A DNA stretch of 56,497 nt, filler included, from Circinaria calcarea (Eukaryota), in NCBI GenBank assembly GCA_051942165.1. It is 3 parts of 3 records of this genome, joined end to end, with 100 filler letters (N's around TTAATTAATTAA, not from the genome) between each part and the next. Parts side by side here need not be neighbours in the genome. Positions count along the whole stretch, not along the records: positions 18,878 to 37,653 come from JAVECS010000228.1; 2 more parts are not named here. One strand, given 5' to 3'. Both the position numbers and the translations under genes were made by a program. Below, in pieces: positions 18,878-37,653 of the stretch; within the stretch, counting starts at the first letter, position 1; each line of letters starts with the position of its first letter. The notes beneath the pieces were generated by a model, which saw only the letters and a program-made list of their open reading frames with translations, ran no database searches and was not told where the DNA came from.

Positions 18878-19299
18878 GCGCGCGAGGCCGCGGACGGGGG
18901 AGGGGGTGGGTTTTGTGGAGGAGACTGGAGGCACTTCAAGGATACAAACGGCCGCGCTGTTGGACGCACCGCTGCCGCGGAGGATGGCGTCGCGGCCGGT
19001 GGATTGAATGGCGGCGAGGAGGAGGGAGGGCGGAGCCGTGCCGGTGATGGTGAGGGTTTGGGCGGGTAGGTATGGGGTGAGGGTATGGATTCCTGTAGGT
19101 AGTGCCGTTAGCGGGGGTTCTCAAGGGTTGGTCGCGAGCGATAGGGGGGTTCAAGGACGAGGCGGGAGGAGATGTTACCGGAAACGTCCTGAAGGGCGCG
19201 GGTTACAGAGGTGATGCAGGCTTCGCAGTGGAGGGGAAGGGCGAAGGTGGTTTGGAAGGGGGGAATGGTGTAAGATGAGGTGGAGGTTGGTGCTGGCAT
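18878..19299 (-). CDS. CCS1: Copper chaperone for superoxide dismutase; 3' part lost in the gap
   Basis: PFQTTFALPLHCEACITSV (HMA-type CXXC), one intron (about 19095-19178), then GTAPPSLLLAAIQSTGRDAILRGSGASNSAAVCILE...PVRGLAR, the characteristic CCS1/Lys7 domain I-II linker. Confidence 0.9.
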
Positions 19300-19710
19300 G
19301 GTGGGAGGGGGCGTTTACGGTGGGATATGCGTAGATATAAGGGGTTTGTACGTATGAATATACTGGAAGGGTTTTGGTTTAATTAACAGGAGCATGTTTG
19401 ATGGGTGATTATTTTGGGGAGGGGGGAGTTTTTTTTTGGAGATTTGCGGATTTCAAAGCGGGCGGGAATCCTTGTCGGGAGTCGGGGACGAGAGCCGATG
19501 AGCTTTCGATTTGGGAGCATTGAAGATTCGTATTCCACGATTTCCACTTCCCATTTATACATAGTCTGCGCTCAAACACCGTCTTCTCAGGCACCGGCCT
19601 GGTCGATAACTTGACACGTGCATCTGCACCCAGTCGCACAATCCAACCTCACCTTCCGCACATTCGATGCCCCGGTGATAAAAAAGCTAGACCTTTTTAT
19701 TTACTTAAAA

Positions 19711-20414
19711 ATGTCCCAAACCATCGGCCATGTATGCTCTATCCTTCCCTATCCCATCTCAATCCCCCCTCCCACTCCTACTCCTACCAACATCACTAAC
19801 CCTCCTCCTTCCCTCCTTCCTCTCCCAGACCCGCCTCGCCTACGCCAGAACCTGGCACCACGTCTCCCTCTCCTCGCCGCACACGCCCCCGCTCGGCCGC
19901 CTCGCCTCGCGCATCGCCCTCATCCTCATGGGCAAGCACAAGCCCATCTGGGACCCGTCCACCGACTGCGGCGACTACGTCGTCGCCACCGGCTGCACGG
20001 ACCTGCACGTGACGGGCAAGAAGCGGCAGCAAAAAAAGTACTACAGACACTCGACGCGTCCGGGCAGTCTGCAGGAGATTAACCTCGAGGGCTTGATGCG
20101 CAAGTGGGGGGGGGGCGAGGTGCTGCGGAAGGCGGTCAGGGGCATGTTGCCGAAGAATCGGTTGCGGGATAAGCGGTTGGAGAGATTGAAGGGTGAGTTT
20201 TTCCGGTGGTTTTCTAAAATAAAAAATTTGGGTGTGGAAGGGGGGGGAATGGGAAGCGGGAATAAGAAAAGAGAGAGAGCTAATGCTTGGAGGTTTAGTC
20301 TTTGAAGGGGCGGCTCATCCGTACAAGGAAAATCTGCTCAAGGTAGATGGGAGGACACGGATCGTAGATATGCCGGAGGTGAAAACAGAATTGATCAAGG
20401 CAAAGTCAATATAG
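19711..20414 (+). CDS. MRPL23: Mitochondrial ribosomal protein uL13m
   Basis: MSQTIGH / TRLAYARTWHH, LGRLASRIALILMGKHKPIWDPSTDCGDYVV and AVRGMLPKNRLR. Introns 19732-19828 and 20193-20298. Confidence 0.95.
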
Positions 20415-20640
20415 CATAGACATAGGCAACGGATGCATGGCAACGGCGTTGCGGAATACAAGCAGTATGTACAATATCAACATGTATTGAGATTGGACAT
20501 GTGCATTTATCTTCTATGTACTCCATTGCCGGGAACCTCAAGCAGAGAAATTCCACGTTTCACCACAAAGCCGTTCTATGGCCCTGTGCTAGCCCTACCC
20601 TAATTGCATAACTTCAAGGAATCTAGTTCTGCTTCGAAGC

Positions 20641-21636
20641 TTACTTCCCGTCTCTCTTGACTGTGCATTGGATCAAGCCGTTGGGGCTGGACTGTGGTGC
20701 ATAGACCTCTGCATCTTTTCCGGTATTCTCCAGCCCCTTGTGCCAACTCAGGTCTATTGCAGATGTCAGTGCTCTGCCTTTGCAGGATATTTCATGATAC
20801 CTACCAATCTCAAAGTAATGCTTGTTCGGTAGAGAATAGTCCACAGCATCAACACCCGTCTCCGCGGCCAATATTTGCTCGCACATTTGATACATGGTGT
20901 TCTGCACACTGGCACTGTTATCATTGGCAAAGGTCTTGAGGGTAATCTCCCGGGCTGTGTTCCAGGTATCGTCAAACTTGGAGCCGACTTCCTCTACTGC
21001 ATGCAAAGTGCTGAAGGTCTCCCAAGTCCAACCACAGTCGACGTCAGTGCTCAGTATTCGATCGTTGGTTTCTTGCAAGATGGTAAACTCATCCTGAATG
21101 AATCCGTGGAACGCAGAGCCGGTACTTTTGAGAACCAACAGACCGACGATTGCAGACCGGACCGAAATCCCCTGTCCTTCCTTGGAAGTAGCTTCGGCAT
21201 TGCGCGTCTCGGAACCATCCCTCAGGAATGAGTGCGGGTGGGGTTCACCATCTATCGTCATTCGAGTCCAGCGGTGGGTTATTACTTTGACTTTGGCGGT
21301 ATGTACATGTTTATACGTATCCGTAAAATGGGCTGCCAGGATGGAAGCAAAGAGCTCCGGTGGGTTGACTGGATGCTGTTTTGCCATGATATAGGTCGTC
21401 TGCTTCATTGTATCTGTGGGGACCACAACACTGTTGTCGGCCTGGGTATATCTAAAAATCGTTGGTAGTTTGCTCTGTGACTCCATCGCGCTTGCTTACG
21501 ACGTTTCAATCTCACCGTCAAGGAGGACGCAGACTGTCATTTCAGTTACAGACTGCAAGCCTGTCTTTTCGTCCCTGTGGACTTTGTAAACTCGGATGTT
21601 GTCTTTGCCATATTGGCAAGCAGCAAGTTGTGGCAT
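20641..21636 (-). CDS. uaZ: Uricase (urate oxidase)
   Basis: MPQLAACQYGKDNIRVYKV, YTQADNSVVVPTDTMKQT, VLKSTGSAFHGF, SASVQNTMY, PNKHYF and PNGLIQCTV. Introns at about 21451-21499 and 20754-20804. Confidence 0.96.
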
Positions 21637-21766
21637 AATGAACTAGAAAGTGCAGGTAAGGCAAAATGACTCAACTTGGACACGATGGAACTAGAACAAT
21701 AAGTATGAGGTGAAAGCAATGCTCTATACTATCAAGACTCATGCGCAATGGCAGTGTTTGAGGGGG

Positions 21767-22094
21767 AGATAGCGAGCAGTCTTTATCTGGTTGCTCTACA
21801 CAGCACTCACGGCGCTCTCCGCCATCTTCGGGCTTTTGGCTCCGATCTCCTAGTATGGATCTGCTAGCCACCTGATAAGCTAGGCAGGTGAGTGGAAAGT
21901 GGAAAGAGAGATCTCCGGCTCAACTCCTTGTGGCGGGTTCCGCACGCCCCCCCCAACTTGAGGTTTTGCAGTATGTGTCTAGCCTGATGTGCTGCTTGTG
22001 GGGTGATTGGAAGTAAATCAAACAGAGTGGAAGGGTTTCCCCACCACAGAAATAAGTATGGGATTCTCGATCTCAGCCCTGCGGCAAGGTCCGA
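21767..22094. promoter_or_regulatory. Candidate uricase upstream regulatory region: three HGATAR (AreA/NIT2-type) sites and one CGG-N6-CCG (UaY/PPR1-type) site
   Basis: AGATAG 21767-21772, TTATCT 21783-21788, TGATAA 21873-21878 and GCGG-CAAGGT-CCGA 22081-22094, all 130-460 nt upstream of the uricase ATG. Confidence 0.5.
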
Positions 22095-22576
22095 ACCCCC
22101 CTAGCCTCCTAGCGTGCACTTAATGTCGATCACCCGAACCTTCCGGGGTCGGCGGGTTACGTTTGGGTACCCACGGACCTTACTTGCTGAACGGGTGCGC
22201 GATCCAGGGAGTATTCCTCTTCAGACATCTCAATGCTCAGTGTTGTCGTATTGGAGTTCTTGAAGCATCCCTAGTTTGACTATCTTCGATGAGCTGGAAA
22301 AGAGCTGGTGCCGAAGTATGCGCGCTGTCGAAGCATGATAAGAATAGTGAATACTTGCTAGGTACCAGTCAACGCCAGGCCATATGCGAAGTGCATTTAC
22401 TCATGATATGTACCTTTGGACTAATGACAGAGGCCTCTCTGCCGTACTGCAGCTGTGAAGGGAGATAAGTGGATGCATTTGTCGCTGCTGGAGAATGAAT
22501 CCTGTTGCCCAGGCCCCGTGACGCCGATGCTACATCCTTACGACGGAGGTTGATCGCGGATTGAGGGGGGATTCTT

Positions 22577-25500
22577 ATGGCTTCTTCCACCGGCCCAGGA
22601 GTAACTGAGGACCTTACGGCGAGAGGACCTCTGAAAAGCGAGCATATCTCACAAGGTGGCGAAGGGATCCACGATGAAAAGGACGCTTTACTCCCTTATG
22701 GTAAGGCTGGGAACGACATTCGGTCTCTGTCAAACAAGAGTGTTATCTTTGGCCCACGAAATGCTTCCCTCGCCAACCTGAATGCACCGCCCGGGAGCTT
22801 CAGTACCAATCTCAAGACCCTGAATGTTGCCCCATACCAAAGCTCAAGGCCAGCGCTCGGTGGCTATCCTAGTAGGGACGGTGAACATTCGACCAGCCAT
22901 AAGACCTCGGAACAACGTCAAGCTGATATCAGAGACAAGATTAACAAGGAGCTCAAAATCAAGGTCGGCTCTGAGAACTTACTCGAAGCGCTGCCCGCGA
23001 AAAATGCGAAACAGACGAAAGACCAAAGGTTACGAGTGGAATTAGAGCTCAGTTCCACGAATCGTAAAATCGCAGAGCTGAAATCCCAACTCGAAGACGA
23101 AATCGAACAATCCAAGCGGCCCACCACACCAAATCAGGGCCGTTTGTCCTCTTCATTTCGCGGAAGCCCGTTACGTTCGCCTTCCCGGGTGGAATATGAG
23201 AGCGACCCCGAACAGCTTGAGGCTGATTTGGAATCGGAATCGCCAACGTACGTTCTGGCGGAAATTCTCCAATCCTTGGAGGTGGAATCAATGCAGCCTA
23301 GTTACTACGTTGAAAGAGCCAACAGTCTGGTCGAGCTCTTCAAGCGATATCCTACCCTCAAGTATGACCTTGTATGGTCAATTTTTGGCATCCGCATGCA
23401 GACGATGATGTTGAGCGAGAGTCGAGAAGTTGTGGCGGCTGGCTACCGAGTGACCAGACATGCTATAGCGGACCGAAAATCACTTCAGACCATCCGTGGA
23501 TTGCACACCGATTCGATGGTAGTTTTATCTCTTATCAAAGAAGGTAAGGCTAGTATCGAGCGTGAACAGGCTCTGAAATTTGTTCGTGCATTCCTAAACG
23601 TGAAGGACGGGGTTCAGGAGTTATCAAAAGCAGTCTTGCGAACTATCGTGTCAATCGCAGAACACCACGAAGATCGATTGCGGAACATTGCCATATTGAC
23701 ATTGGCCGAGATGATGATCAAGGATCCAGTGCTGGTCGCTGCTGCTGGAGGTATTACTCCCTTATTTGACGCGCTAGGAGAAGGTACTTACCATGGGTCG
23801 GAGAGCCTTACTTCAACCATCTTATATACGATGGATTCACCTCGATCCCGCAAGGCGCTCAACTCTGGACAGGAGCTCGAAGCCGCTTTTGGGCTCTTTA
23901 CAGATCCTCTGGCTGCGCACGGGCATGAGGAAAGGTTGAAGGTGAACGTTAGATCCATAGCCACAATGATAAATTCCTGGCCTGGTCTATTTACCTTAGC
24001 AAAGAATGGGTTTGCTACCCTACGGTCACTGCTTTTGTCGCTCAGCCATCCTACCAGTTCTGCGAGGGACCTGGTACTTGATCTCTTGTTCGACGTTCTA
24101 CGTATCAAACCTCCTTCATGGACTTCGTCCTTTTTAGCTGGACGCAGACTCACAACATATGGGCGAGTTGCCAATCTAAGGACTGATCGACTGGAAAAGG
24201 AATCGCGGATTGAGGCCGAGGGAAATTCCGGTCGTGTAAACCTTGTCGATCATTACAAGACCCTGACCTTAGCTGTTCTCATTCGCTGTGGACTTCTGAA
24301 AGTATGTATATGGGCTACAACAACCAAAGACATATCTAAACATCTTTGTAGGCTTTATCAAATCTAGCTGCGGAAGCGTCTGAAATACCGTTGAAACGAA
24401 AGACAGCCTTACTCCTTGGCGAAGTGTTGAAGCTGGCCGATTACTCTCTTCCCCCTTCGATGAGTGTTGATTTGCAAACTCTCCCTGCATTGATGGATTT
24501 AGCCTTCCAAGAGGACGATGAAGAGTATCCGGTAGCGGTAAACATGGTCTATCAAATCGACAGTGTTATTCGTACGTTACAGAAGTCTTCCACGTCGGCG
24601 AAGAATGTCACGCCTTCCCCGGCAACTGGTCTGGACACAAATGGTCTTTCAAAAACGACGGATCCCGGAAGAGCCAGAGTTGACATGGACGAGATACAAT
24701 TTAGATCACTATTGGTAGAGACACAGGTTACTAGCACGGTCAACTATCTTAAGTGGAGATGGGATATTATCATCGATATTATCGAAGGACCGCTAGTAAA
24801 CCCGAGGCGTCTAGAGGACGCGATAAAGGGGACTAAGTTTCTCAAGAGGCTTATAGCTTTCTATCGCCCTTTCAAGTACAGATTCTCGGATGCTAGGAAT
24901 ACCAAGGCCAACCAGCGTTACGTACGCATCGGCTGCGCTTTACTGAAGAGCCTTCTGCAAACCCCTGAAGGTGTACAATATCTTTCAGAAAGTAAATTAT
25001 TGCGCCAACTTGCTGAATGCTTAGCCCAACTAGATAGGGTAGGTTTCCTCACTGGGTGATGTGTGACCACATACTAGTAGAGGAATCACTCAAACCCCTT
25101 TTTATAGGATCTCCAAGAATAGATGCTAATACAGTCTTTTTAGATGAGTGGCTTGATCTCTACAGCTCCTCTTTTCGCCCCAGATCGCATATCCGAGACA
25201 TTGAGTGGGGGATACTTTACCATGCTCGGAGCTTTGAGTAGCGATCCTCAAGGTTTAGTCATGATCGGACGTTGGAGGATGGTTAACATGTTTTACCGTA
25301 TTATTGACCTGAAGGACCGAGATGATTTGATACGACTTTTATTAGGCAATATGGATTTCTCTCTGTACATCATACAGCCCATCAACAGTTACATTGCTAA
25401 ACTTAGGACAGGGATAGTCATTTGCAAGTTATGCTGTCAAAAGCTCTCACCACATGCTCAAAGGTAAATAATCCATTCGCATATTAAATATCAGTGCTCA

Positions 25501-26975
25501 TCTTGTTCAGACTATACGGATTTTCTCTACAAAACTTCTTCGAAAATACGCTACCCAAGCCCCAACCACAAGCGAGGTTGAACGCGGCAGCTCTTCAACT
25601 GCATATTGGGCCATTCGCCTTCTTGTAACTCAGCTATACGATCCTGATGTGGAGGTTAGCGAGGTAGCCGTGCAGATTCTACAGGAAGCATGTCACTCGA
25701 AGAGATATCTGGAGTACGTGGTCAAGTGCCGTCCCGCTCTGGATCATCTTGGTGAAATCGGTGCACCTCTGCTTCTTCGGTAAGTCGGGGGATACCCTTA
25801 GCGATTATACATTGCTCAAAGGAATACGCAGGTTTCTATCTACCTCGCTAGGCTATCAGTATCTGAATGGACTGGATTACATAACGCAGGAAATGGATGA
25901 TTGGTTTCTGGCAAGTCCTTAGGCTCAATCACAAAAGTAGCTTCTATTAACGAATGTTAGGGTCGTAATGAGAAGTATGTCCTGTTGGTCGAGGCATCAC
26001 TAACCCGTGCCTTATCGCCCAACTCGAATCGACCGAGATCTACAATCGATGTACCTATGCAGGCCTACGATTACGGCATGGTGCCTCCTCATTTTTATAG
26101 AGAGTTAACCCGGACAAGTGAGGGATGTAGCCTCCTAAAAGCGTCAGGCCACTTTGAAGACTTTGTCTCCACTATCCAGGCCTTCTGGTCCGAAAACGAA
26201 GACTCCGAAACAATGTTGAAAGTGAAGGGTTGTTTGTGGGCAGTCGGCAATATCGGTTCCATGGAACTTGGAGCGCCATTCATCGAGAACTCAGACGTCG
26301 TGAGCTGGATCGTAAAGATCACCGAATGTTCTAAAGTGATGACTATGAGAGGTACCGCCTTCTTGGTCCTCGGTCTCATATCTCGAAGTCTACATGGGAT
26401 GGAGATATTGGCGGAGCACCGTTGGGATGCGGTGACGAATTGCATGGGTGAATCACTAGGGTTTTGTCTTCCTCCGTCCTTGGAGCTACTTTTCCAGGTC
26501 CGAGCAAAGTCGACGTGATTCGAAATCCCCATGCTAACCATCGTTACAGATCCCCGAGAAGTCATCCGAACCTAGGGCAAATCGAGCGACCGTAACGATA
26601 AAAGATGTGCAGCCAGTGCCCGACGACAGTGACCCTCTCGAAACTCGAATTCTCAGTCTGGTCGTCGATCTGGGTAATACTGTCTTGACCAAACGAGCTG
26701 CCGGCGAGCTGCATGGGTATGTAAGATGTTCCACAGTCTCGGGTGTCGCTGATCGACATAGGATCAAAACCAAGAAGCCTGAGCTGTTCAGCTCCATTTC
26801 TCTGTTCAACAGAGTCATGTTCATTCTCGAATGTCACTCGTTCCGATTACCTATAAGGCGGTTTATCATCGACATGTTTGACAAGGATGTGATGAGACGC
26901 ATCGTCTTGGAAGACAACTCGGATTACGAAGCCGAGTATCAACCGACAACGGCAAAGTTGATTGCCACTGGATGA
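22577..26975 (+). CDS. AVO3: TORC2 subunit Rictor/Avo3 (S. pombe Ste20-like), multi-exon
   Basis: HR1-like KELKIKVGSENLLEAL, EREQALKFVRAF, SSFLAGRRLTTYGRV, FYRPFKYRFS, PPHFYRELTRT, KGCLWAVGNIGS and FRLPIRRFIIDMFD, spread over several exons. Includes a GC-AG intron at 25911-25960. Confidence 0.93.
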
Positions 26976-28319
26976 GTCAGGGGCAATGGCGATAGCAGAA
27001 TGCTCTCCACTCCAAAGTACTTCTGGCGGTTGCGGAGTAAGAGGAAGAGCAGACACTGACCCTCACACTATAGAATGTACAGTACAGCTCTCGCATAGCG
27101 GCGGTGTTCGCTTATGCATCTATGTTTCAGGGCATTCGAGCTAGGACACATCGAAGGAAACGGATTGGCTCCGAGCGTGGGGTGTTGGTTGTGCCACGTA
27201 ATGTAAGACTACCGTTCACGATGTACTTTAGACAGCACTCGGGGATATGGATCTGATAAGACAAGCGTGACCACGGGCCGTGAGCCTGTCCACTTCTCGG
27301 TGTCCTTTAGTAATGCACAATTCACGTGGCGGTTTGGCCATCAGGAACCCGAGGCAGCACTGTCATCTAACAGCTCCCGACTGCGCTGTACTTCCTTGAT
27401 TATGCCCGTATCCCCATCCGTTCTCTGGGTGGCGGCTACACCGGACCCTGCCTGGGAATGCCTCGTCCGACCAGCAGCTTTTTTGATGTTTTGTGGATAC
27501 GGAGTTCTTGACGCCGGAATGGTTCACTAGGGCATTTAAGCGACAGAACTGGGTAGAAAACCCCTAGCCAAAGGGTCGGGCTTCGGCACTATGAAATCTC
27601 CCGGTGATCATGCACTCTCTCCTCGAGAGTAAGGGTCCTCCTCAATGCGGTCAGGGGACCTTAAGGCGTGGCGCGGGCCGAATGATGGTGATGCAATCGT
27701 GGTCGAATGCGTGCAGAAAGCAGTAGAAACGATCCAGACTTCATTTCCACTACCGTTAGATCTGATTCTAGGGACTGTCCGTTCATCCCTTTGGTGCGTC
27801 TTGGCGCCATCCCTGACCGATGAAGCATCTCCACATTTGATTGGCCCCGTCCAACGCCAACTGCCTCCCTGCCATCCGACTTTGAGGCCACGGCAAGACT
27901 GTCCGCCATGCTATCGCCAGGACCGCAGTCTTGTCGTCGTTGACTTTGAAACCTCCCCACCTTACTAATGCGGGCCTCCCATTCTACTGCCTTTCATTCT
28001 CGCATAGTCCTTTTGACTGAAGCCCACAACCAATAGCCTTGCGCTTCCCTCCACTGTCCCACCAAACGTCACCTCCCCCCCGACCAGCAGCACTTTTGAA
28101 GGACACTACAAGCCAATCTCTTCGCTATCGATTAGACCTGACGTTTAGCCGTGCAGCCACCTGCGCTGAACCGCGTGTTACCTCATCCGGCCGGACGACA
28201 GAATTTCACACAGGCTTGCCTTGCCTCATTGACGAGGCGAGAATACTACATCGCTGCGGTTCTCGGTGCAGCCGCCGTCGTATGGAGAAGTTCAGACAGC
28301 GGCAAACCCAGAAATTGGG

Positions 28320-30246
28320 ATGAGTCTATTCTCAAGACAAGGAGCCGCCTTGCCCGCTGCAATCGACGGTACAGCTGAGCAGGCCGCTGGCCTGGCCATA
28401 GACTCGGTCGGTTTTATGGGCGATAGGGTTGCCCGGCATGATCTCTCCTTCCCACGCGCACTCGATCCCCACCTGGACGCCAGAGCCATTGTGCGCTTGG
28501 TCCAGTGCTCACAATGCTCTCTCCCTCTGCGGACTCCGATGACCTTACCATGTGGCAACAGTCTATGTCGACCATGCCTTCCGGAACTTCACCGGCGCGA
28601 GAACATCTCCTATCCAAGCACACCCGGCCGTCAACAGGGCTTCACTTGCCCGTTCAAAGATTGCGGACGGGAGCACGCTTTGGGGGACTGCAGTCAAGAC
28701 GTCACACTCGCCAAGATTATGGAGCGGATCGGGATGGAAATTGCGAAATACAGGCCCATCACCAGTGACACACCGATGCTGTTGGACGAAAGGTTACGGT
28801 GGAAGAATATCGTGGATAGCTCCAAGGAAGGAGATTTACCCAACTCAAGGATATTACACGGCGGACGACTGGTCGCCACATACACAATGGCTGAGCTTGG
28901 CGAGTTACGGTTCGACTCGGAAGTCTCGTATCAGACCATGTCACGGACTGGGGATACTTATCCCCATCTTGATACCGCCATCTTGGATCACTTGAAAGAA
29001 GCGACAAGAAGTGAAATGGACTGCCATGTATGCTACGCTTTGATCCTCGATCCGCTGACCACGCCTTGCGGTCATACCTTCTGCCGCAAATGTGTGGCGC
29101 GTGTACTCGATCATTCCAATCTTTGTCCCATCTGTCGCCGGCTACTTCTGATGCCCCCGGGTGTTCAATCCGTACCGAGTAACAAGCGACTGTCTAATTT
29201 GCTCCTGAAGCTCTGTCCGGACCATGTTGCCGCACGGGCTGACGCTGCGACACAAGAGGAGTCGGGCATGGTAGGCGAGCAGAACATGCCTTTATTCGTC
29301 GTCACGTTGGCGTATCCATCCATGCCGACATTCCTACATGTTTTCGAACCTCGATATCGTCTTATGATACGTCGAGCGATCGAAAGCGGGGATCGAAAGT
29401 TCGGCATGATGATGTATAATCGAACGGGGGAACCGCAGGGGGAATTAGGTCCTACGCCCTTTATGCAATACGGTACATTATTACATATCATCAGCATGCA
29501 GCTCATGCCAGATGGTCGAAGCCTAATTGAAACCGTTGGTATATCAAGATTCAAGGTCCACTCTTGGAGTATGCTGGATGGGTATTTTGTGGGAAATATT
29601 GAGCGCGTTGACGATCTTTCTCTCGCAGAGGAAGAACATGACGAGGCCATGGAAGTGAGCTCTAACCCGCCGGCCAATGATCTGATCGCTCAATTGAATG
29701 GTTTATCGACAAGGGAACTTCTGCAGATAGGTGTTGGCTTCATCACTCGAATGCGTGCTGCCTCGGCCCCGTGGCTACGTGAAACTGTTATCGCCACTTA
29801 TGGTGCTCCACCAGAGGACCCAGCATTGTTCCCTTACTGGTTTGCCAGCGTCGTACCGATCTCTGACGATGAGAAATACCAACTGTTACCATCAAGAAGT
29901 GTGAGGGAGAGACTCAAGATCACGGCGCAGTGGGTCCGAAGGATAGAAGCACAGAGATGGTGAGCCAGATCCTGTTTTTTGAATGATGTCCTCCCCTATC
30001 CTACCCCTTATAACCTTTTCCCCCCCCTTTCAAACCGTGCTCGACCGGGGAATCATTATAGTCTGACCATGATGCGGTCGCGAAGGGACGGACTGGTGTC
30101 TCCAGACTCTGACTCCGATATTGACGGCGATGACGAACATGAACGAATGGCGGAACTTTTTGCCAATACAAGCTCTAGGAATGAAGACTGATTCTGTTTT
30201 CACGTCGTTATACAGGTCTTCAAATAGCTCTTGTACCGTCTTGTGA
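28320..30246 (+). CDS. RING-finger plus LON-N (LONRF/CrgA-like) protein with a C-terminal CaaX box (CTVL) in the distally spliced form
   Basis: Two RING-like motifs (CSQCSLPLRTPMTLPCGNSLCRPC and CHVCYALILDPLTTPCGHTFCRKC...CPICR) and the LON-N motif LHVFEPRYRLMIRR. Final intron 29960-30215 gives RWSSNSSCTVL*. Confidence 0.9.
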
Positions 30247-31365
30247 CCATTAGCAAGCGCCGCGGTTGGTGTCGCGGCGTGTATTCTCGCTTATATCCTC
30301 TATTGTCTTGAGCCCTAGATTGGCAGGTTTCATTAAAACATCATCGACGTCTACGGATTTTCTGAGCTGCAATCACATCATCGAACGACCTTTTGGATTT
30401 GCTTTTGGCATGGCGAGGGGATGTTTTATCGGTGCAGGTAATGGAGCAGGAGTTTGGAACTCAGGTGGAGGGGATTAAGAGCATGTCCTGGTTCTTTATA
30501 TGCAAAAATCTCATGGACCGCTATATAGCACATTGGCAGCTTACTTGCCGTCGAGGGTCCGAGATGCTCACCAGACACCTGTATATAGGGATCAGACTTT
30601 GCGGAGGGACGGTTTACTGGTAGTGCACCGAGCCGTTTTACCTCATTAGATCCAGTTAGAAGCCAAATTCTAAATATTAGACTTGCTACGTTGTGCATTT
30701 GTGTTCGTACAATTCGAAGTTACTTTGTTAGCGTAGCCATCACACTAAGGTTCTAGCGGATGTGAAATGCCGGCGTGGGCCAAGGTTAAAATCCATCTCG
30801 TCTTTGCACCATAAACGTCTGAAGCCACGTAGAATAGAGATTGTCCCAAGGCTCTAAACCAAGCACGAGTATATATGTCGATACTTCAGCACCGCAACCG
30901 ATGCTACTCTCGTCATCTGGTAGGTAAATGTACGTCCCTCGAGCCCATTGCGGAGAGTTGAGGCTCAACAGTGGAATCTCGGTAGCGATGCCCGCTACCA
31001 TAATCTAGTGTGAGATCGGTTGCTTGAATGGGGTGACGTCGTTGGCTCTCACTATGCACCCGTATTGTTCGCGACTGTGAATGAAATTTCAATAGAGTAA
31101 GGGGAAATGCCCATCTCGTACCGGCAAGTCTACTGGCGAGATTATTAACCTTCACGAGTTATTAAAGAGTCGCATATATAACCCTCACAGGTACTCAGCT
31201 CAGTACACAAAATTGACTCATCTCTGAACTCAGCAGGCAACAACTACTCCGTTCCAGATGAGAGACGCTTGATCATTCCAGTACTATAACAAATCTCCTT
31301 CCCAATCCGCCCATCGATAGATCAAAAAGTTGAATTCGGTATACTCGGGAGTAACTCGAAGGACC

Positions 31366-34300
31366 ATGGACCATGGCCTCGGACTCGGAGCTGGACTTTT
31401 CAATGGCTCATTTCATGATCGTAACGAAATCCAAGCAGCGGATGAAGCACCAGCCAAAGATGTTGAAGAAGCGCAAAACGGAGATAACACCAAAGAAACG
31501 AATATACTTGATGAATCGGATCGTCTTAAAGCTCTTGCTGCTGGCGTGCGAGACCAAGATGAGCTTGAGCGAAACATCGGCCGCCAGGTATGCGCGTTGT
31601 CGTGAAGAGTGGGTGGCATGATACGTCCGTACTAATGTACCTATTGCGATAGGCGGATCAACTACTCACGGAACAAGCCAATGAACGAGACGAAAAGCGC
31701 CTCGAGAAGACTCGAACAGACAAGGCGTATGTGATGGCTGTTTACCCTCGTGATAAACACTGCTAAACACTATTTTCTGCAGTAAGCTGATTACGCAAAT
31801 CCACAAGATTGAAGAGCGAATAGGACAACCTACCGGGGCCGCAACGTCGACCCGCTTAAGGGCTGAGATAGCAAACTATGAGGCCCAAATCAGGACACTA
31901 GATATCGATCTGGAGCAAATTCAACTTCGTATTGAGGAACGGAGCCAGAACTTGGAGCAAGGCGAAGTTGAGTCTACAGCACAGTTGGGGAGTCGGCGAA
32001 TGCCGAATGAGAGCCAGCGCGATTTCCTCATACGTACTGGCAAGATCACACCCTTTTCCAAGATAGCAGGTCACTCATTACCTCGTGCTGGTTCAACCCT
32101 CCAAGGAGTTCTATTGGATGTAGAAGAGGGCGAGGATGAGCTGGAAGAGGAGGGCAAACTGGAGGGGTCCCCAGCGGAAGACCCCTTATCTCATCGCAAT
32201 CTGCTACAACCAGGTTTCAGTAATGATAACGGAAGTGATATCGCGTCACATCTAACGGGAACTTCGGAGTACTCAAGGAAGCGTAGACGCCTGAGCGGAA
32301 ATTCTACATTACGTGTGGGCAGGGAGAGGGATCAGGAGAACATACTTCCGACGTCTTCAAGGGCCTCTAGTCAAATATCATCGGAGGACAGGGGGGGCGC
32401 AACATTTATATTTGACCAAGCTGCATATGAGCACGCTACTCCTGATAGCTCTGACCAGAGTGAGTATTCAGACTGTAAGGGGGGGGTTTTGGACACGCCA
32501 GTGCCCAAGCGCAATCGAAAAGGGCGAAAGCTGAAACGTGAAGATGGTGGTGCTTACCAAGAAGACCTGACCAGTCTGGATGATGGTGATGAGAAACTTT
32601 ATCAAGCTCGACTGCAAAAGTGGATAACCAGAAGAAGTACAGCACGACGGCTCGCAAAAGGAAAGAAAGGCTCGGTGGATGCATCAAATGAGATTCCTGT
32701 TTCGGGCCTAGAGTTTGAGAGTCAACCCCTTCTAGAAGATAGAAGCCAGCATACCGAGGAATCACTCGAGGATGAGTGGCATAGGCCTCATCCTACGAGA
32801 TCGGATACGAACCTTGAAGATGGCTTTCGAATACCAGGAGACATATACCCTTCCCTGTTCGACTATCAGAAGACCGGGGTCCGCTGGCTCTGGGAGCTGT
32901 ATTCTCAGCAAGCTGGTGGGATCATCGGTGATGAAATGGGACTTGGAAAGACGATACAGGCCATAGCATTCCTTGCTGGCCTCCACTACAGCAAAAAGCT
33001 AAGGAAGCCGGTAATAGTCGTCGCACCTGCAACAGTCATGAAGCAGTGGGTCAATGAATTTCATACCTGGTGGCCCCCTTTCCGGGTGTCGATACTACAC
33101 ACCTCTGGTAGTGGTATGATTGACCTCGGCCGAGAATCACGAAGGGAAGATGAGCTTGCATCGCAGACGTTCGATAGCTCAAGACGAAAACCTTTGAGCA
33201 AATCGATGAAGGGTGCTAAGAAGATCGTTGACCGTGTCATCAATGAGGGCCATGTTCTCGTCACAACGTATTCTGGCTTGCAGACGTATGCGGAGTTACT
33301 GATCCCAGTCAACTGGGAGTACGCGATCCTTGATGAGGGTCATAAGATACGAAACCCTAATGCAGCAATTACTATCTACTGCAAAGAGTTACGAACAGCG
33401 AACCGCATCATCCTTTCTGGAACTCCAATGCAAAACAACCTGGTTGAGCTATGGTCCTTGTTTGATTTCGTCTTTCCGATGCGCCTCGGAACGCTTGTCA
33501 ATTTTCGCCAGCAGTTCGAGTTCCCAATTCGCCAAGGAGGATATGCGAATGCCTCAAATTTACAAATACAAACTGCTAGCAGATGCGCAGAAACCCTAAA
33601 AGATACTATTTCACCTTATCTTCTACAACGTTTCAAGGTTGACGTAGCTGCTGATTTACCGAAGAAAACCGAGCAAGTCCTCTTCTGCAAGCTCACGAAG
33701 TCACAGCGAGAAGCATACGAGAATTTTCTTGCTTCTAACGACATGAAGTCGATACTCAGTGGAAAGCGGCAGGTCTTGTATGGGATAGATATCTTGCGAA
33801 AAATCTGCAACCATCCCGACCTTCAAGATCACAGAACTTTATCTATTCAACCTGACTACAACTATGGTAGCGGCGCAAAGTCAGGTAAGATGGTCATTGT
33901 CAAGGAGCTGCTAAATATGTGGAAGGACGGCGGTCACAAGACTCTTTTGTTCGCCCAGCATCGGATTATGCTTGATATCTTAGAGAAGTATATAAAATCG
34001 ATGGAAGGTATCAATTATCGTCGCATGGATGGCAATACTCCGATCAATATCCGGCAATCTATGGTCGATGAGTTCAATAAGAATCCCGAGCTTCACGTAT
34101 TCCTTCTTACCACAAAGGTCGGCGGACTGGGAGTGAATCTAACAGGAGCAGATCGAGTGATCATTTATGACCCTGATTGGAACCCATCTACGGATATTCA
34201 AGCTCGAGAACGGGCTTGGCGATTGGGCCAGAAGCGGGAAGTACAGATATACCGTCTCATGATTGCTGGCACCATCGAAGAGAAGATCTTCCACCGCCAA

Positions 34301-35263
34301 ATCTTCAAGCAATTTCTCACCAATAAGATTCTCAAGGACCCCAAACAAAGGCAGACATTTCAGATGAAAGATCTGCATGATCTTTTCACTCTCGGTGGCC
34401 CTGATGAAGGCGCTACTGAGACTGGTCGACTTTTTGAAGGAACCGAAGTCAAGTTCAGCAACGGTGGAAGAAATTCTCAGCCAGCACAAGCCAACCATGA
34501 CATGGCATGGGGCGGAGCTACTCCGCCCCCATCGTCTAGCAAAGATCGAGTACTCCGGGAGATGGCTGGCGTGGCGTCAGTTGAACCCTTCGGAAGCGAA
34601 GATCAGCTGCCAAGTCATGGTAATTCAGGTGAAAACAAAAACTCTGAAACTCGTATCATGGAAGGAATCTTCGCACGCTCTGGTGTTCATTCGGCACTCG
34701 AGCATGATCAGATTATTAATGGAAAGAAAGTTATCGCGGCAGATCCGAAAATCATTGAGAGAGAAGCTAAGAGGGTGGCATCAGAGGCAGCCTATGAGCT
34801 TAAAAAGGCAGGGGAGCTCGCAAAGACCGTCCCGGTTGGTACCCCTACATGGACAGGTCAGTTTGGCACAGCGGGCAGGCCAGATGGCGGAAACCAACAA
34901 GGCTTTGGTCGTGGTACTTCTCGAGCTGGCCCTGCTTCTACGAGCATACTTGCCGGGTTACAGAATCGCCAAGCTGCACATGTCCTCGTTAATGGCTCCG
35001 GCCCAAATACGCTAAATAGTCGTGGCCCAGGACAGGACGGCCTGCGAGGAAAGAACTTTATGACGATGATCCGAAATTATCTGGTCACGCATGGAGGGAA
35101 GGTACACACACAGATGTTGATTGATCATTTCAATCGTTATTGTAACACGCCAGAGAGAACGGCGGAGTTCAAGGAGATGTTAAAAGAGATCGCGACGTTG
35201 CAAAAGGGATCCAGGGGCAGAGGTGTATGGATACTGAAAGACGAGTATAAGTCTACTGCTTGA
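31366..35263 (+). CDS. RAD26: SNF2-family transcription-coupled repair helicase Rad26/Rhp26/CSB
   Basis: RDFLIRTGKITPF, IGDEMGLGKT, ILDEGHKIRNP, LSGTPMQNNL, QARERAWRLGQ and a C-terminal winged-helix-like FKEMLKEIATL. Introns at about 31588-31652 and 31727-31782. Confidence 0.95.
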
Positions 35264-36118
35264 TGTATCTCGATACGAAGCCAAATGAAGCATATGGGCC
35301 TCGCAACTTTACTTTGGACTGCTGAAGTCAGCACCTCACTGAATCTATGTCAACGCATAGCACTGTCGGGTTTGCGAATGGACGGGGCCGCCGTGTCTGA
35401 TTGATCTATGCCATGATACCCCATTTATAGATTTAACGGAGACTTTCTGAAGCGAATGCTATATTGACGATGCGTACACTTCTAACGACTGAGCCTCACC
35501 AATCCACCTATGCAATGCTGATTTAACAGATTCAATTCCTGTGAACTACCAGGAAAGAGCGACTCTAAAGCTCAGCCGGAGCGTATCTCCAATATGGCAT
35601 CTCTGAAGGATATTCTAGTCCCACATCAGCTGTACTCGATTCCAATAACTGCTATCAATATCCCTCTTCCTAAGGTCCTCCTCAATTGGACCACCCCCTA
35701 ACTAAGTGGTAATCTCTCGGGTGTAACTTAAATATAATACCGTAAGGGAAACCGCGTGGCAACCCCAAAATAGCCTGGCCAATCGTAATCCCTGTATGCT
35801 AAACAAATCCCAAGTTTACGGAGGTAGGAGATGGCTTGAAAGGATCATTGAGTTCAGTACTTTCTGTTTCTATCAGTCGAGCTAGATTCTCACGTTCGTT
35901 ACCATCAAGTCCATAATTTATCGCTGGGATCGTCCTCTGTCCATACCATTGTCGTTCGTTCTGGGATTCGTGTGTCGTCAGCATCTACAATTTCGGCTTT
36001 GGCTCAAGGAGGATCTTGTCTGACGGAGTAAAGCTTTGTGGAGCAGAGTAGAAAGCAAAGGAAGGGAGATTAAAAAAACAACAGTGCTCCTTTGGACGAC
36101 CCACGAAGCAGTGTCATT

Positions 36119-37114
36119 ATGCATTTCACCCAGGTCGCCTTCACCTTTCTACTCTACTCGTCTTTCACAGCGGCCTGGCCATGGCCACCGTCAATACAGA
36201 ACGTGGAGGACCTGATAGCAAAACGGCAGGAAGGTATGAAAATCAGATGGATCACATGGAAAACCAGCAACGCAGGAGGCTGATGAAAACATTGCAGGCA
36301 CAGCAACCTCTGCCTCAGGAAGGCAGCAGACCAGCCCCTCACAGGCCTCCCCCTCGGCCTCCAATTCTGCGGCATCAGCATCGGCGACTATAACAAGATC
36401 CGCAAATTCACCTGGGTCAGCTAGTGGGTCCGCGCCAGCAACATCAGGAGGTAGTAAAGGTACAGGGACGACAAAAGGTGCTACCACTGGCAAGGGCAGT
36501 GCGAAGCCAACAGCTACAACACCCACGAGCATCGATCAACGCCTTCCGGCTGGAGGAATTCAGATGCTTACGCCGTCAGCACTCGCCGCGCCCTCCTATT
36601 ACAAAATTGGTGATCAAATTACTTTTGGCTGGAATTACACTTCATTAATTGTTACACCCACTGCCATTGATATCATTGTTTCTTGCACCGCAAACAGTGC
36701 GACATACACCATATCCAGCAACGCGACCGTGCAGCCTACAGGGCAGGCAGTTTGGGATACAGCGCGTGACGCCCAAGGAGATAATCCACTGCTGACGGAT
36801 ACTTATACTCTGGTCATCCATGATGCAGCCAGAGACATCACTGCAGCCCCCGCTGCTGGCTACTTGGGTTCATACAGCCAGTTTAGGTTTGGCATGTATC
36901 GTCGACAGGAATACACTCCGTTGAACGGTAAATTACCTCCCCCTTTCTCCTCGTTGAATGTAATCCAGCTAATGCCAAGGAAGAGTACGTATGCGTGACA
37001 TGCAGTGGTGCTCTCTCCGCCATGGAGCGACAAACACTAAAGTTCCTCTTTGGTATGGGTTTGATTACCGTAATATCCTTTACCTGGTTTGCCGGCGGTT
37101 TGGGGGTTTTCTAG
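36119..37114 (+). CDS. Conserved fungal secreted/membrane-anchored Ser/Thr-rich protein (signal peptide, KR processing site, beta-rich domain, C-terminal hydrophobic segment)
   Basis: MHFTQVAFTFLLYSSFTAAWPWP...IAKRQE, intron about 36234-36296, a low-complexity S/A/T/G tract, LPAGGIQMLTPS...YYKIGDQITFGWNYTSL, intron about 36928-36983, then EYVCVTCSGALSAMERQTLKFLFGMGLITVISFTWFAGGLGVF*. Confidence 0.8.
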
Positions 37115-37526
37115 GCGGCCTCTCGAATGAACTTCTTCAACTCCTATACAATCAAACCTCGTCGGCATATCGGACCGTCTTTATCTATATTGCATGGCTG
37201 CAGAGGACTGCTTAGTATTGACGGGTTGCATCGGCGTTCGGCATACTAATCATGGGGTGACGGCGAAAATGGGATTGGGATTCGAATTCAGGCACGGTCA
37301 GGGGAAACGGGGTAAGGCCCTTTGTCTAAGCAACCATTCTAATTCAATTTAAGCCTTTTTATTTCCATCCGGATCTTACACTGTTCATGTCAGGCTTGTC
37401 TAGAGTTTACGAAAAGGGGGTTTGGAAAAGCATCAGTCTTCCGTGTTGGGAAGCAACGGCTCCGGCTCCACTCAAATCGATCATTCTCCCTGGCCCCGTT
37501 TGCATCAACGCTCCCCTTTACATCCG

Positions 37527-37653
37527 CCCTTCTACCCCTTCTACCCTTCTACCCTTCTACCCTTCTACCCTTCTACCCTTCTACCCTTCTACCCTTCTAC
37601 CCTTCTACCCTTCTACCCTTCTACCCTTCTACCCTTCTACCCTTCTACCCTTC
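37527..37653. repeat. 8-bp tandem repeat (CCCTTCTA)n, about 15 copies, truncated by the gap
   Basis: Directly visible as a near-perfect array running into the N gap. Confidence 0.95.

Follow-up and report, generated by a model that had tools for sequence, protein, structure and literature searches.

The terminal intron of a RING-RING-LON gene in Circinaria calcarea

The window analysed here is a stretch of 56,497 nucleotides (nt; filler included) of the lichen fungus Circinaria calcarea (assembly GCA_051942165.1). Its part from JAVECS010000228.1 (positions 18,878 to 37,653) carries a gene with an intron at the very end of the coding region, in which one donor faces two acceptors. The single-exon open reading frame (ORF) of this gene starts with the ATG at 28320 and extends to a Trp codon at 29958-29960, directly after which a TGA follows at 29961-63. 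The gene product is a putative CrgA/CarS/LONRF-type E3 ligase with two RING fingers and a LON N-terminal substrate-binding domain. In Pfam, LON_substr_bdg (PF02190) matches residues 323-540 with E=5.3e-34 and 118 bits (cut-off 28.7), profile positions 2-199 of 200 being aligned, and this domain lies C-terminal of the RINGs as is typical for the family. C3HC4 RING fingers in the N-terminal half are likewise characteristic of CrgA/CarS/LONRF-type ligases. Here, zf-C3HC4_2 is found at residues 235-272 (E=3.1e-14), zf-C3HC4 and zf-C3HC4_4 have two matching stretches each, and the first RING is visible at residues 63-124 as a near-invariant Cys/His pattern in an alignment of 40 homologues. The public protein P0001, which comes from a metagenome-assembled genome of C. 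calcarea, is 100% identical and has the same start Met, and the next-best protein matches are other Lecanoromycetes. The relatedness to Fusarium CarS is evident from a Fusarium-like locus (L043), which shares 45% identity with residues 55-547 (E=3e-153). The function of CrgA/CarS/LONRF-type proteins is known only from genetics in Mucor, Fusarium, and Xanthophyllomyces (PMC5715946, PMC13123865). The gene and its 3' end comprise the following features, all on the plus strand:

28320..29959, plus strand: exon 1, 546 codons and TG, the first two bases of the final Trp codon
29960..29965, plus strand: shared 5' splice site GTGAGC (TG/GTGAGC, GT at 29960-61), at which both RNA joints start
29960..30085, plus strand: short intron of 126 nt (proximal acceptor), RNA joint in X2 record 8, GT..AG
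30063..30067, plus strand: branch-site-like CTGAC for the proximal acceptor, 19 nt upstream of the AG
30083..30085, plus strand: proximal 3' splice site AAG, RNA joint
30086..30191, plus strand: alternative terminal coding segment with stop TGA at 30189-91, its first G completing the Trp codon
30187..30192, plus strand: branch-site-like ACTGAT for the distal acceptor, sharing bases with the stop codon of the acidic frame and located 24 nt ahead of the AG
29960..30215, plus strand: long intron of 256 nt (distal acceptor CAG at 30213-15), RNA joint in X4 record 22, GT..AG
30216..30246, plus strand: CaaX micro-exon of 31 nt, a G completing Trp, then SSNSSCTVL and stop TGA at 30244-46, based on translation and homologous ends
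30247..30666, plus strand: 3' untranslated region (UTR), at least to the extent of the relative's RNA contig (X4 record 22, which runs from 30215 to 30666 without a further joint)

Three C-termini can be read from this arrangement. Unspliced RNA gives a protein that terminates with ...AQRW, because of the TGA at 29961-63. The 126-nt and the 256-nt splice both restore the TGG codon. The proximal form then continues from 30087 with the tail DGLVSPDSDSDIDGDDEHERMAELFANTSSRNED, which has 34 acidic and Ser-rich residues, 12 of them Asp or Glu (D+E), and which resumes the reading frame of the main ORF past its TGA. The distal form ends with C-T-V-L-stop, i.e., with Cys at position -4, an aliphatic residue at a2 and Leu as X, and therefore has a CaaX box of the type recognized by geranylgeranyltransferase I (GGTase I). 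Leu in the X position of a CaaX box favors GGTase I. The first-pass annotation of this DNA had described a donor with two acceptors, each with its own branch site and both in frame, a distal tail with a CaaX box ending in Leu, and a third end ...RW* upon intron retention; inspection and translation of the sequence place every one of these elements at the predicted base, and the CaaX box also turned out to be the conserved C-terminus of the family (see below). An acidic tail behind the proximal site is rarely obtained by chance. We defined an acidic-tail test as an AG acceptor preceded by a branch site and leading to a tail of at least 20 amino acids with at least 25% D+E and a stop inside the intron, and just one of 300 dinucleotide-preserving shuffles of the window intron passed it.

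Both splice forms in RNA of a close relative

RNA contigs were available from a relative that is ~92% identical in DNA (three metatranscriptome runs of one study, together with one DNA-type run) and were placed on positions 28000-31000 of the window. They contain two joints in total, both GT..AG. One of them, in X2 record 8 (188 nt), connects 29958/9 with 30085/6 and skips 126 nt; its short side has 28 nt with 0 mismatches, and the contig then proceeds unspliced to 30244. The other one, in X4 record 22 (589 nt), connects 29958/9 with 30215/6, skips 256 nt, has a short side of 142 nt and continues to 30666. X2 record 7 (58 nt) moreover consists of exon 1 and a loose end of 27 nt that corresponds to the relative's distal exon. 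This distal micro-exon differs from that of the window in three positions, and all three changes are synonymous. Run X2 hence contains both spliced forms, and run X4 assembled only the distal form. In X2 the spliced forms have contig depths of 6.0 and 6.7, which sum up roughly to the 15.3 of the exon-1 contig, the depth being a rough guide only. The DNA-type contig X1 record 4 spans the whole intron. X3 record 17 is unspliced across 30029-30214 and no X2 contig covers 29962-30084, contig cover or absence being no proof in either direction.

Taken together, one donor with two acceptors and both junctions in RNA, as in an event of the carS type, is found in the ~92% identical relative. The situation that the first-pass annotation had regarded as fatal, namely that only the distal junction is ever observed, did not occur, as 29959>30086 (X2 record 8) and 29959>30216 (X4 record 22) are both present.

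Two other readings of this region were rejected. An RNA gene inside the long intron as the cause of its length is not supported, as an Rfam scan of 29900-30700 with E up to 1 gave 0 matches. A cassette exon, in which the acidic segment is joined to the CaaX exon, would be only 10 or 12 nt long, because GTs within 30086-30188 exist only at 30096 and 30098, and it is also countered by X2 record 8, which is unspliced over 30085-30244.

The CaaX end is conserved in the family

Scanning metagenome contigs with a 40-sequence alignment (40 of 270 homologues, picked for spread) revealed 80 loci, 6 of which could not be assessed due to a contig end or an early stop of the match. Among the 74 assessable loci, 69 have Trp (or another residue at this position), then 3-15, mostly 4-7, residues and C-x-x-x-stop. 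This end is reached without an intron in 13 of the 69 loci (e.g., WSSGSSCSIL in L026) and lies behind an intron at the same phase-2 position in the other 56. There the terminal intron has a median length of 205.5 nt with a range of 50-665 nt, and in 38 of the 56 it is at least 140 nt long. Among 49 distinct orthologous tails, 32 have Leu in the last position. A C-x-x-x end is present in 45 of 150 family representatives, and the final Trp is the end of the protein in 102 of the 120 closest homologues among the matches listed. The distal CaaX end is the ancestral C-terminus of the family.

Five of the 74 loci have no CaaX end. Two of them (L039, L074) are contigs resembling complementary DNA of the respective other isoform. 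In the remaining three (L036, L037, L072) no CaaX micro-exon is found within 900 nt despite ample downstream DNA, which may reflect a lineage-specific loss or a more distant exon. The homologue P0014 reads from the Trp directly into YDCTIF-stop, possibly an intronless CaaX end of 6 residues.

The proximal site and the acidic tail in related lineages

The loci closest to the window have 64-71% protein identity to it; L002 and L007 nearly duplicate L001 and L006, respectively, and were not counted. These loci have a common layout: the donor, ~60 nt, CTGAC, 17-19 nt, AAG, and an open frame of 20-37 codons rich in D, E, and S. The frame stops at or just before a distal CTGAC or CTAAC, and 15-25 nt further on follow CAG or TAG and the CaaX micro-exon. 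CTGAC at 17-19 nt before the proximal AAG is found in the window, L001/2, L003, L005, L006/7, and L027, and the proximal acceptor is AAG in 9 of 10 distinct sequences (12 rows listed) and TAG in L009. Tails analogous to that of the window are encoded in L001-L007, L027, and L065. Seven of the eight distinct closest sequences pass the acidic-tail test (window, L001, L003, L004, L005, L006, L027); L008 fails, with a tail of 60 residues containing only 15% D+E. With 300 dinucleotide-preserving shuffles per intron, 0-2 passed for the eight closest sequences and at most 3 (L065) among 34 long introns. The internal branch site, the AAG and the acidic frame are therefore conserved in the closest loci, and the lack of such conservation, which the first-pass annotation had named as evidence against its proposal, was not encountered. 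Acidic tails are also present in two public or ORF models, P0117 (cf. Caloplaca) and P0013. A comparison of L005 with L027 shows many gaps of 1-3 nt in the flanking intron and UTR but no indel inside the tail segment.

Other tails, or none, occur at greater distance. L009:1752-2110 and L010:4135-4465, both with 53-58% identity, have terminal introns of 326-356 nt and share, in an alternative frame, the motif RLARPLEPEL followed by acidic residues, which suggests a third, longer family of alternative tails. The Eurotiomycete-like loci L013-L019, L025, and L030/L040 have long terminal introns of 205-288 nt before an exon of the WSSGNACSIL type, and neither an acidic nor another long open frame can be reached from the donor in any of them.

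An alternative tail in Dothideomycetes

The contig L074 is 99.9% identical to the genomic loci L056/L064 and lacks the sequence between the donor and an internal AAG acceptor, which marks it as a spliced transcript. Its tail is FGIFTPYDIYGIGGLGVASGDTSDSEI. The nearest named relatives of L056 are Dothideomycetes (Cryoendolithus, 70%). Both spliced forms of this lineage are also present as continuous ORFs in the protein collection, the CaaX form as P0274 and P0301 (31 member sequences) and the form with the alternative tail as P0275, P0288, P0291 (6 contigs), and P0303 (13 contigs). Residue-level conservation of the alternative tail is seen between L056 and L057, whose coding regions share 85% identity. 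The public models of Dothideomycetes show both ends as well: those of Peltaster, Hortaea, and Zymoseptoria end in CaaX boxes of the YQSNSCRIL type and those of Cryoendolithus and Cercospora in acidic tails.

Fusarium carS and its probable CaaX end

In Fusarium fujikuroi the intron near the 3' end of carS is alternatively spliced according to RNA sequencing and reverse transcription PCR (Ruger-Herreros et al., 2022, PMC9581392). Use of the proximal 3' site removes a 168-bp intron and predominates in the dark, use of the distal 3' site removes a 336-bp intron, and intron retention leads to an early stop, so that three C-termini are predicted overall (PMC9581392). Retention increases at 37-42°C while one spliced form decreases, and a resulting drop of CarS was proposed (PMC9581392). 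In the main text of that article the terms prenyl, CAAX, isoprenyl, and farnesyl occur 0 times. Fusarium carS and the window gene both belong to an orthologous RING-RING-LON repressor family, have the intron at the end of the coding region, and combine one donor with a proximal and a distal 3' site and a retained form with an early stop.

The Fusarium-like locus L043 allows a closer comparison. Its protein shares 96% identity with an entry of Fusarium oxysporum and, over 59% of its length, 92% identity with P0405, named in UniRef as "RING finger protein, Fusarium fujikuroi", and the reverse primer of PMC9581392 matches it with one mismatch exactly behind the 336-nt acceptor. Identified via this primer and the named protein matches, L043 is a relative of F. 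fujikuroi and not F. fujikuroi itself. Three acceptors are present in L043:2481-2830, at 167 nt leading to SIHGCTIL, at 336 nt leading to TITTRR and at 141 nt leading to TKLIHGRSGPSTAAQSSD. The ORF P0391 (51 member sequences, transcript-type) represents the CaaX form with SIHGCTIL, and the contig L039 directly represents the distal form. Hence, in L043 the proximal site (~168 nt) gives the CaaX end and the distal site (336 nt) a short basic tail, whereas in the window gene the CaaX end is distal and the alternative tail is acidic with 34 residues. Judged from the relative L043 and the intron lengths of 167 versus 168, the published proximal isoform of carS most likely ends in a CaaX box, and it is most likely the same splice switch that operates in Fusarium, with the order of the exons reversed. 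The deposited CarS models of F. fujikuroi and F. oxysporum (P0405, P0390) end in the tail of the 141-nt acceptor instead, which is the DNA of the CaaX exon read in another frame from an acceptor ~26 nt upstream. A review of 2017 states that the isoprenylation site of CrgA is absent in CarS (PMC5715946), a statement that probably stems from such a gene model with the CaaX exon in the wrong frame.

The Fusarium-like ORF is interrupted by an in-frame stop at L043:1081-1083, close behind the first RING region, in line with the 5' intron whose mis-assignment is mentioned in the review; the window gene has no intron there.

Other prenylated or spliced relatives

As stated in the first-pass annotation, CrgA of Mucor circinelloides carries an isoprenylation motif: the review locates this site at the C-terminus (PMC5715946). 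Like the distal form of the window gene, CrgA has, besides two RING fingers and a LON domain, a prenylation motif at its C-terminus, and it represses light-induced carotenogenesis. No splice switch of CrgA is described in the available text of PMC5715946, whereas the window gene has its terminal intron with two acceptors. The glutamine-rich regions of Mucor CrgA are under-represented even in CarS (PMC5715946). PTR1 of Xanthophyllomyces dendrorhous regulates carotenoid, sterol, and lipid metabolism (PMC13123865), and it shares the architecture of RING and LON substrate-binding domains with the window gene, as do the mammalian LONRF1/2. The main text of PMC13123865 has 0 matches for CaaX, prenyl, splic, and isoform. 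A literature search for prenylation of CrgA or LONRF retrieved nothing relevant, the primary CrgA papers being outside its coverage.

Splice-dependent CaaX ends are otherwise found in animals, among them lamin C, OAS1 p46, and ZAP-L. For CDC42, alternative splicing adds or removes a CaaX box (bioRxiv 10.1101/366369), and lamin A/C is another gene with a splice-dependent CaaX box (reviewed in PMC13296569). As in the window gene, a terminal alternative exon or acceptor sets the prenylatable end of these proteins, which changes the membrane association and leaves the catalytic domains untouched. However, the animal proteins are unrelated, and in the window gene the choice is made by a pair of 3' splice sites in one fungal intron with a CaaX exon of 31 nt.

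A probable splice-controlled CaaX box and its alternatives

Since the two acceptors give either the CaaX or the acidic end, the splice choice decides whether the ligase carries a prenylation signal. We consider it likely that this RING-LON ligase gains or loses a CaaX box of the geranylgeranyl type through alternative use of its 3' splice sites; prenylation and anchoring would follow from it. In such a mechanism, two 3' splice sites, each with its own putative branch point, would compete for one donor. Use of the distal CAG (30215) would add the 9-residue micro-exon end with CTVL, a CaaX box suited for GGTase I, whose Cys would be geranylgeranylated, so that the ligase would be anchored to a membrane. 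Use of the weak proximal AAG (30085) would add the acidic, Ser-rich tail of 34 residues and leave the CaaX codons in the 3' UTR, giving a presumably soluble form, and intron retention would yield a truncated protein that stops right after the Trp. The ratio of these forms may be regulated. Of the toggle between a membrane-anchored and a soluble ligase that the first-pass annotation had proposed, the switch between CaaX and acidic end is thus supported, whereas prenylation and the membrane or soluble location are what we infer from it.

Several points weigh against this interpretation. The RNA comes from a relative with ~92% identity and from a single RNA study rather than from C. calcarea itself, the proximal joint is seen in one contig of 188 nt whose short side has just 28 nt, and isoform ratios cannot be measured from contig depths. 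The splice pattern of carS is unchanged by light, nitrogen starvation and hydrogen peroxide (PMC9581392), and the searched literature contained no experiment showing prenylation of any family member. The non-CaaX tail varies by class, being acidic here, FGIFTPYD...SDSE in the Dothideomycete lineage and short and basic in Fusarium, and nine Eurotiomycete-like long introns (L013-L019, L025, L030) have no acidic frame. Finally, the nucleotide identity between L005 and L027 is 77% in the acidic segment versus 70-75% in the flanks, and between L056 and L057 it is 78% in the tail segment versus 75% and 63% in the flanks. Since the acidic segment is scarcely more similar than the flanking intron, the constraint acts on frame and composition and not on sequence, which would be expected of a disordered tail.

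The same observations can be taken to mean that only the CaaX isoform is functional and that splicing to the proximal AAG is noise or gives an unproductive side product, the acidic frame having no role of its own. The weak sequence conservation of the acidic segment, the different tails of the fungal classes with none in the Eurotiomycete-like loci, and the assembly of only the distal form in X4 would all fit. Yet the spacing from branch site to AAG together with an open acidic frame recurs in seven of the eight distinct closest loci versus at most 2 of 300 shuffles, the contig depth of the proximal form in X2 is similar to that of the distal form, and the Dothideomycete alternative tail is conserved at the residue level (L056/L057) and occurs on several contigs (P0291 on 6, P0303 on 13). 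We regard mere noise as improbable.

Equally unlikely in our view is that the splice choice acts mainly as a dosage switch, in which retention and non-CaaX forms lower the amount of active CaaX repressor, e.g., under heat. It is true that retention of the carS intron rises and one spliced form falls at 37-42°C, with the proposed drop of CarS (PMC9581392), and that the non-CaaX tails are unrelated between classes, so that the loss of the CaaX box is their common denominator. Within lineages, however, frame, length and composition of the alternative tails are maintained, and a pure off-switch needs no kept tail because the retained intron already stops after the Trp. The conservation of frame, length and composition within lineages argues for an own role of the alternative tails, although it is not proof of it.

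Returning to the likely addition and removal of a CaaX box by splicing, this mechanism joins two separately published facts, the isoprenylation motif of Mucor CrgA and the 3' splicing of Fusarium carS. Fungal carotenoid synthesis has its master negative regulators in CrgA, CarS, and PTR1. The splice choice would determine whether a deeply conserved CaaX box is present, most likely also in CarS, and a lipid-anchored versus a free ligase would be a testable mechanism. Already known are the splicing of the terminal intron (Fusarium), the CaaX motif (Mucor) and, generally, splice-controlled CaaX boxes (animals). New are the link of carS splicing to the CrgA-type CaaX motif, the extension of this link to three Pezizomycotina classes, the variant of lichen fungi in which a conserved weak AAG site leads to an acidic tail, and the corrections of gene models including that of the window gene.

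A far-reaching extension, to which we assign only a small chance, is that the CaaX box under splice control serves as a conserved metabolic sensor, in which a repressor of carotenoid synthesis (in Xanthophyllomyces also of sterol and lipid synthesis) needs geranylgeranyl diphosphate (GGPP) for its own anchoring. GGPP is the direct carotenoid precursor and a product of the pathway governed by the ligase; the GGPP supply would then feed back on location and activity of the ligase, and the splice choice between the CaaX, the acidic-tail and the truncated form would set the share of the ligase that is under this feedback. Such a sensor would hold across Sordariomycetes, Dothideomycetes, and Lecanoromycetes, and most database models, ending at the Trp or in wrong tails, would miss the regulatory end.

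The public gene model

For the window gene itself, the public model P0001 (589 residues) uses a different acceptor:

30059..30061, plus strand: TAG acceptor of the public model P0001, with a 102-nt intron and the tail CLTMMRSRRDG...NED

Compared with the proximal site observed in RNA, this acceptor is shifted upstream by 24 nt; it changes the final Trp to Cys and adds 8 residues. That this single 102-nt intron and the 589-residue protein are the correct structure is almost certainly wrong: the model is annotated in this way and a pyrimidine-rich run precedes the TAG, but the relative's contigs on 28000-31000 contain no RNA joint at 30061, while joints at 30085 and 30215 are present, and the model drops both the conserved CaaX end and the Trp that ends most of the closest homologues listed. 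The acceptor was rejected on the lack of a joint. P0001 is part of a systematic annotation error in this family, in which most of the closest homologues listed end at the Trp and the window gene's own public model uses an acceptor without RNA support.

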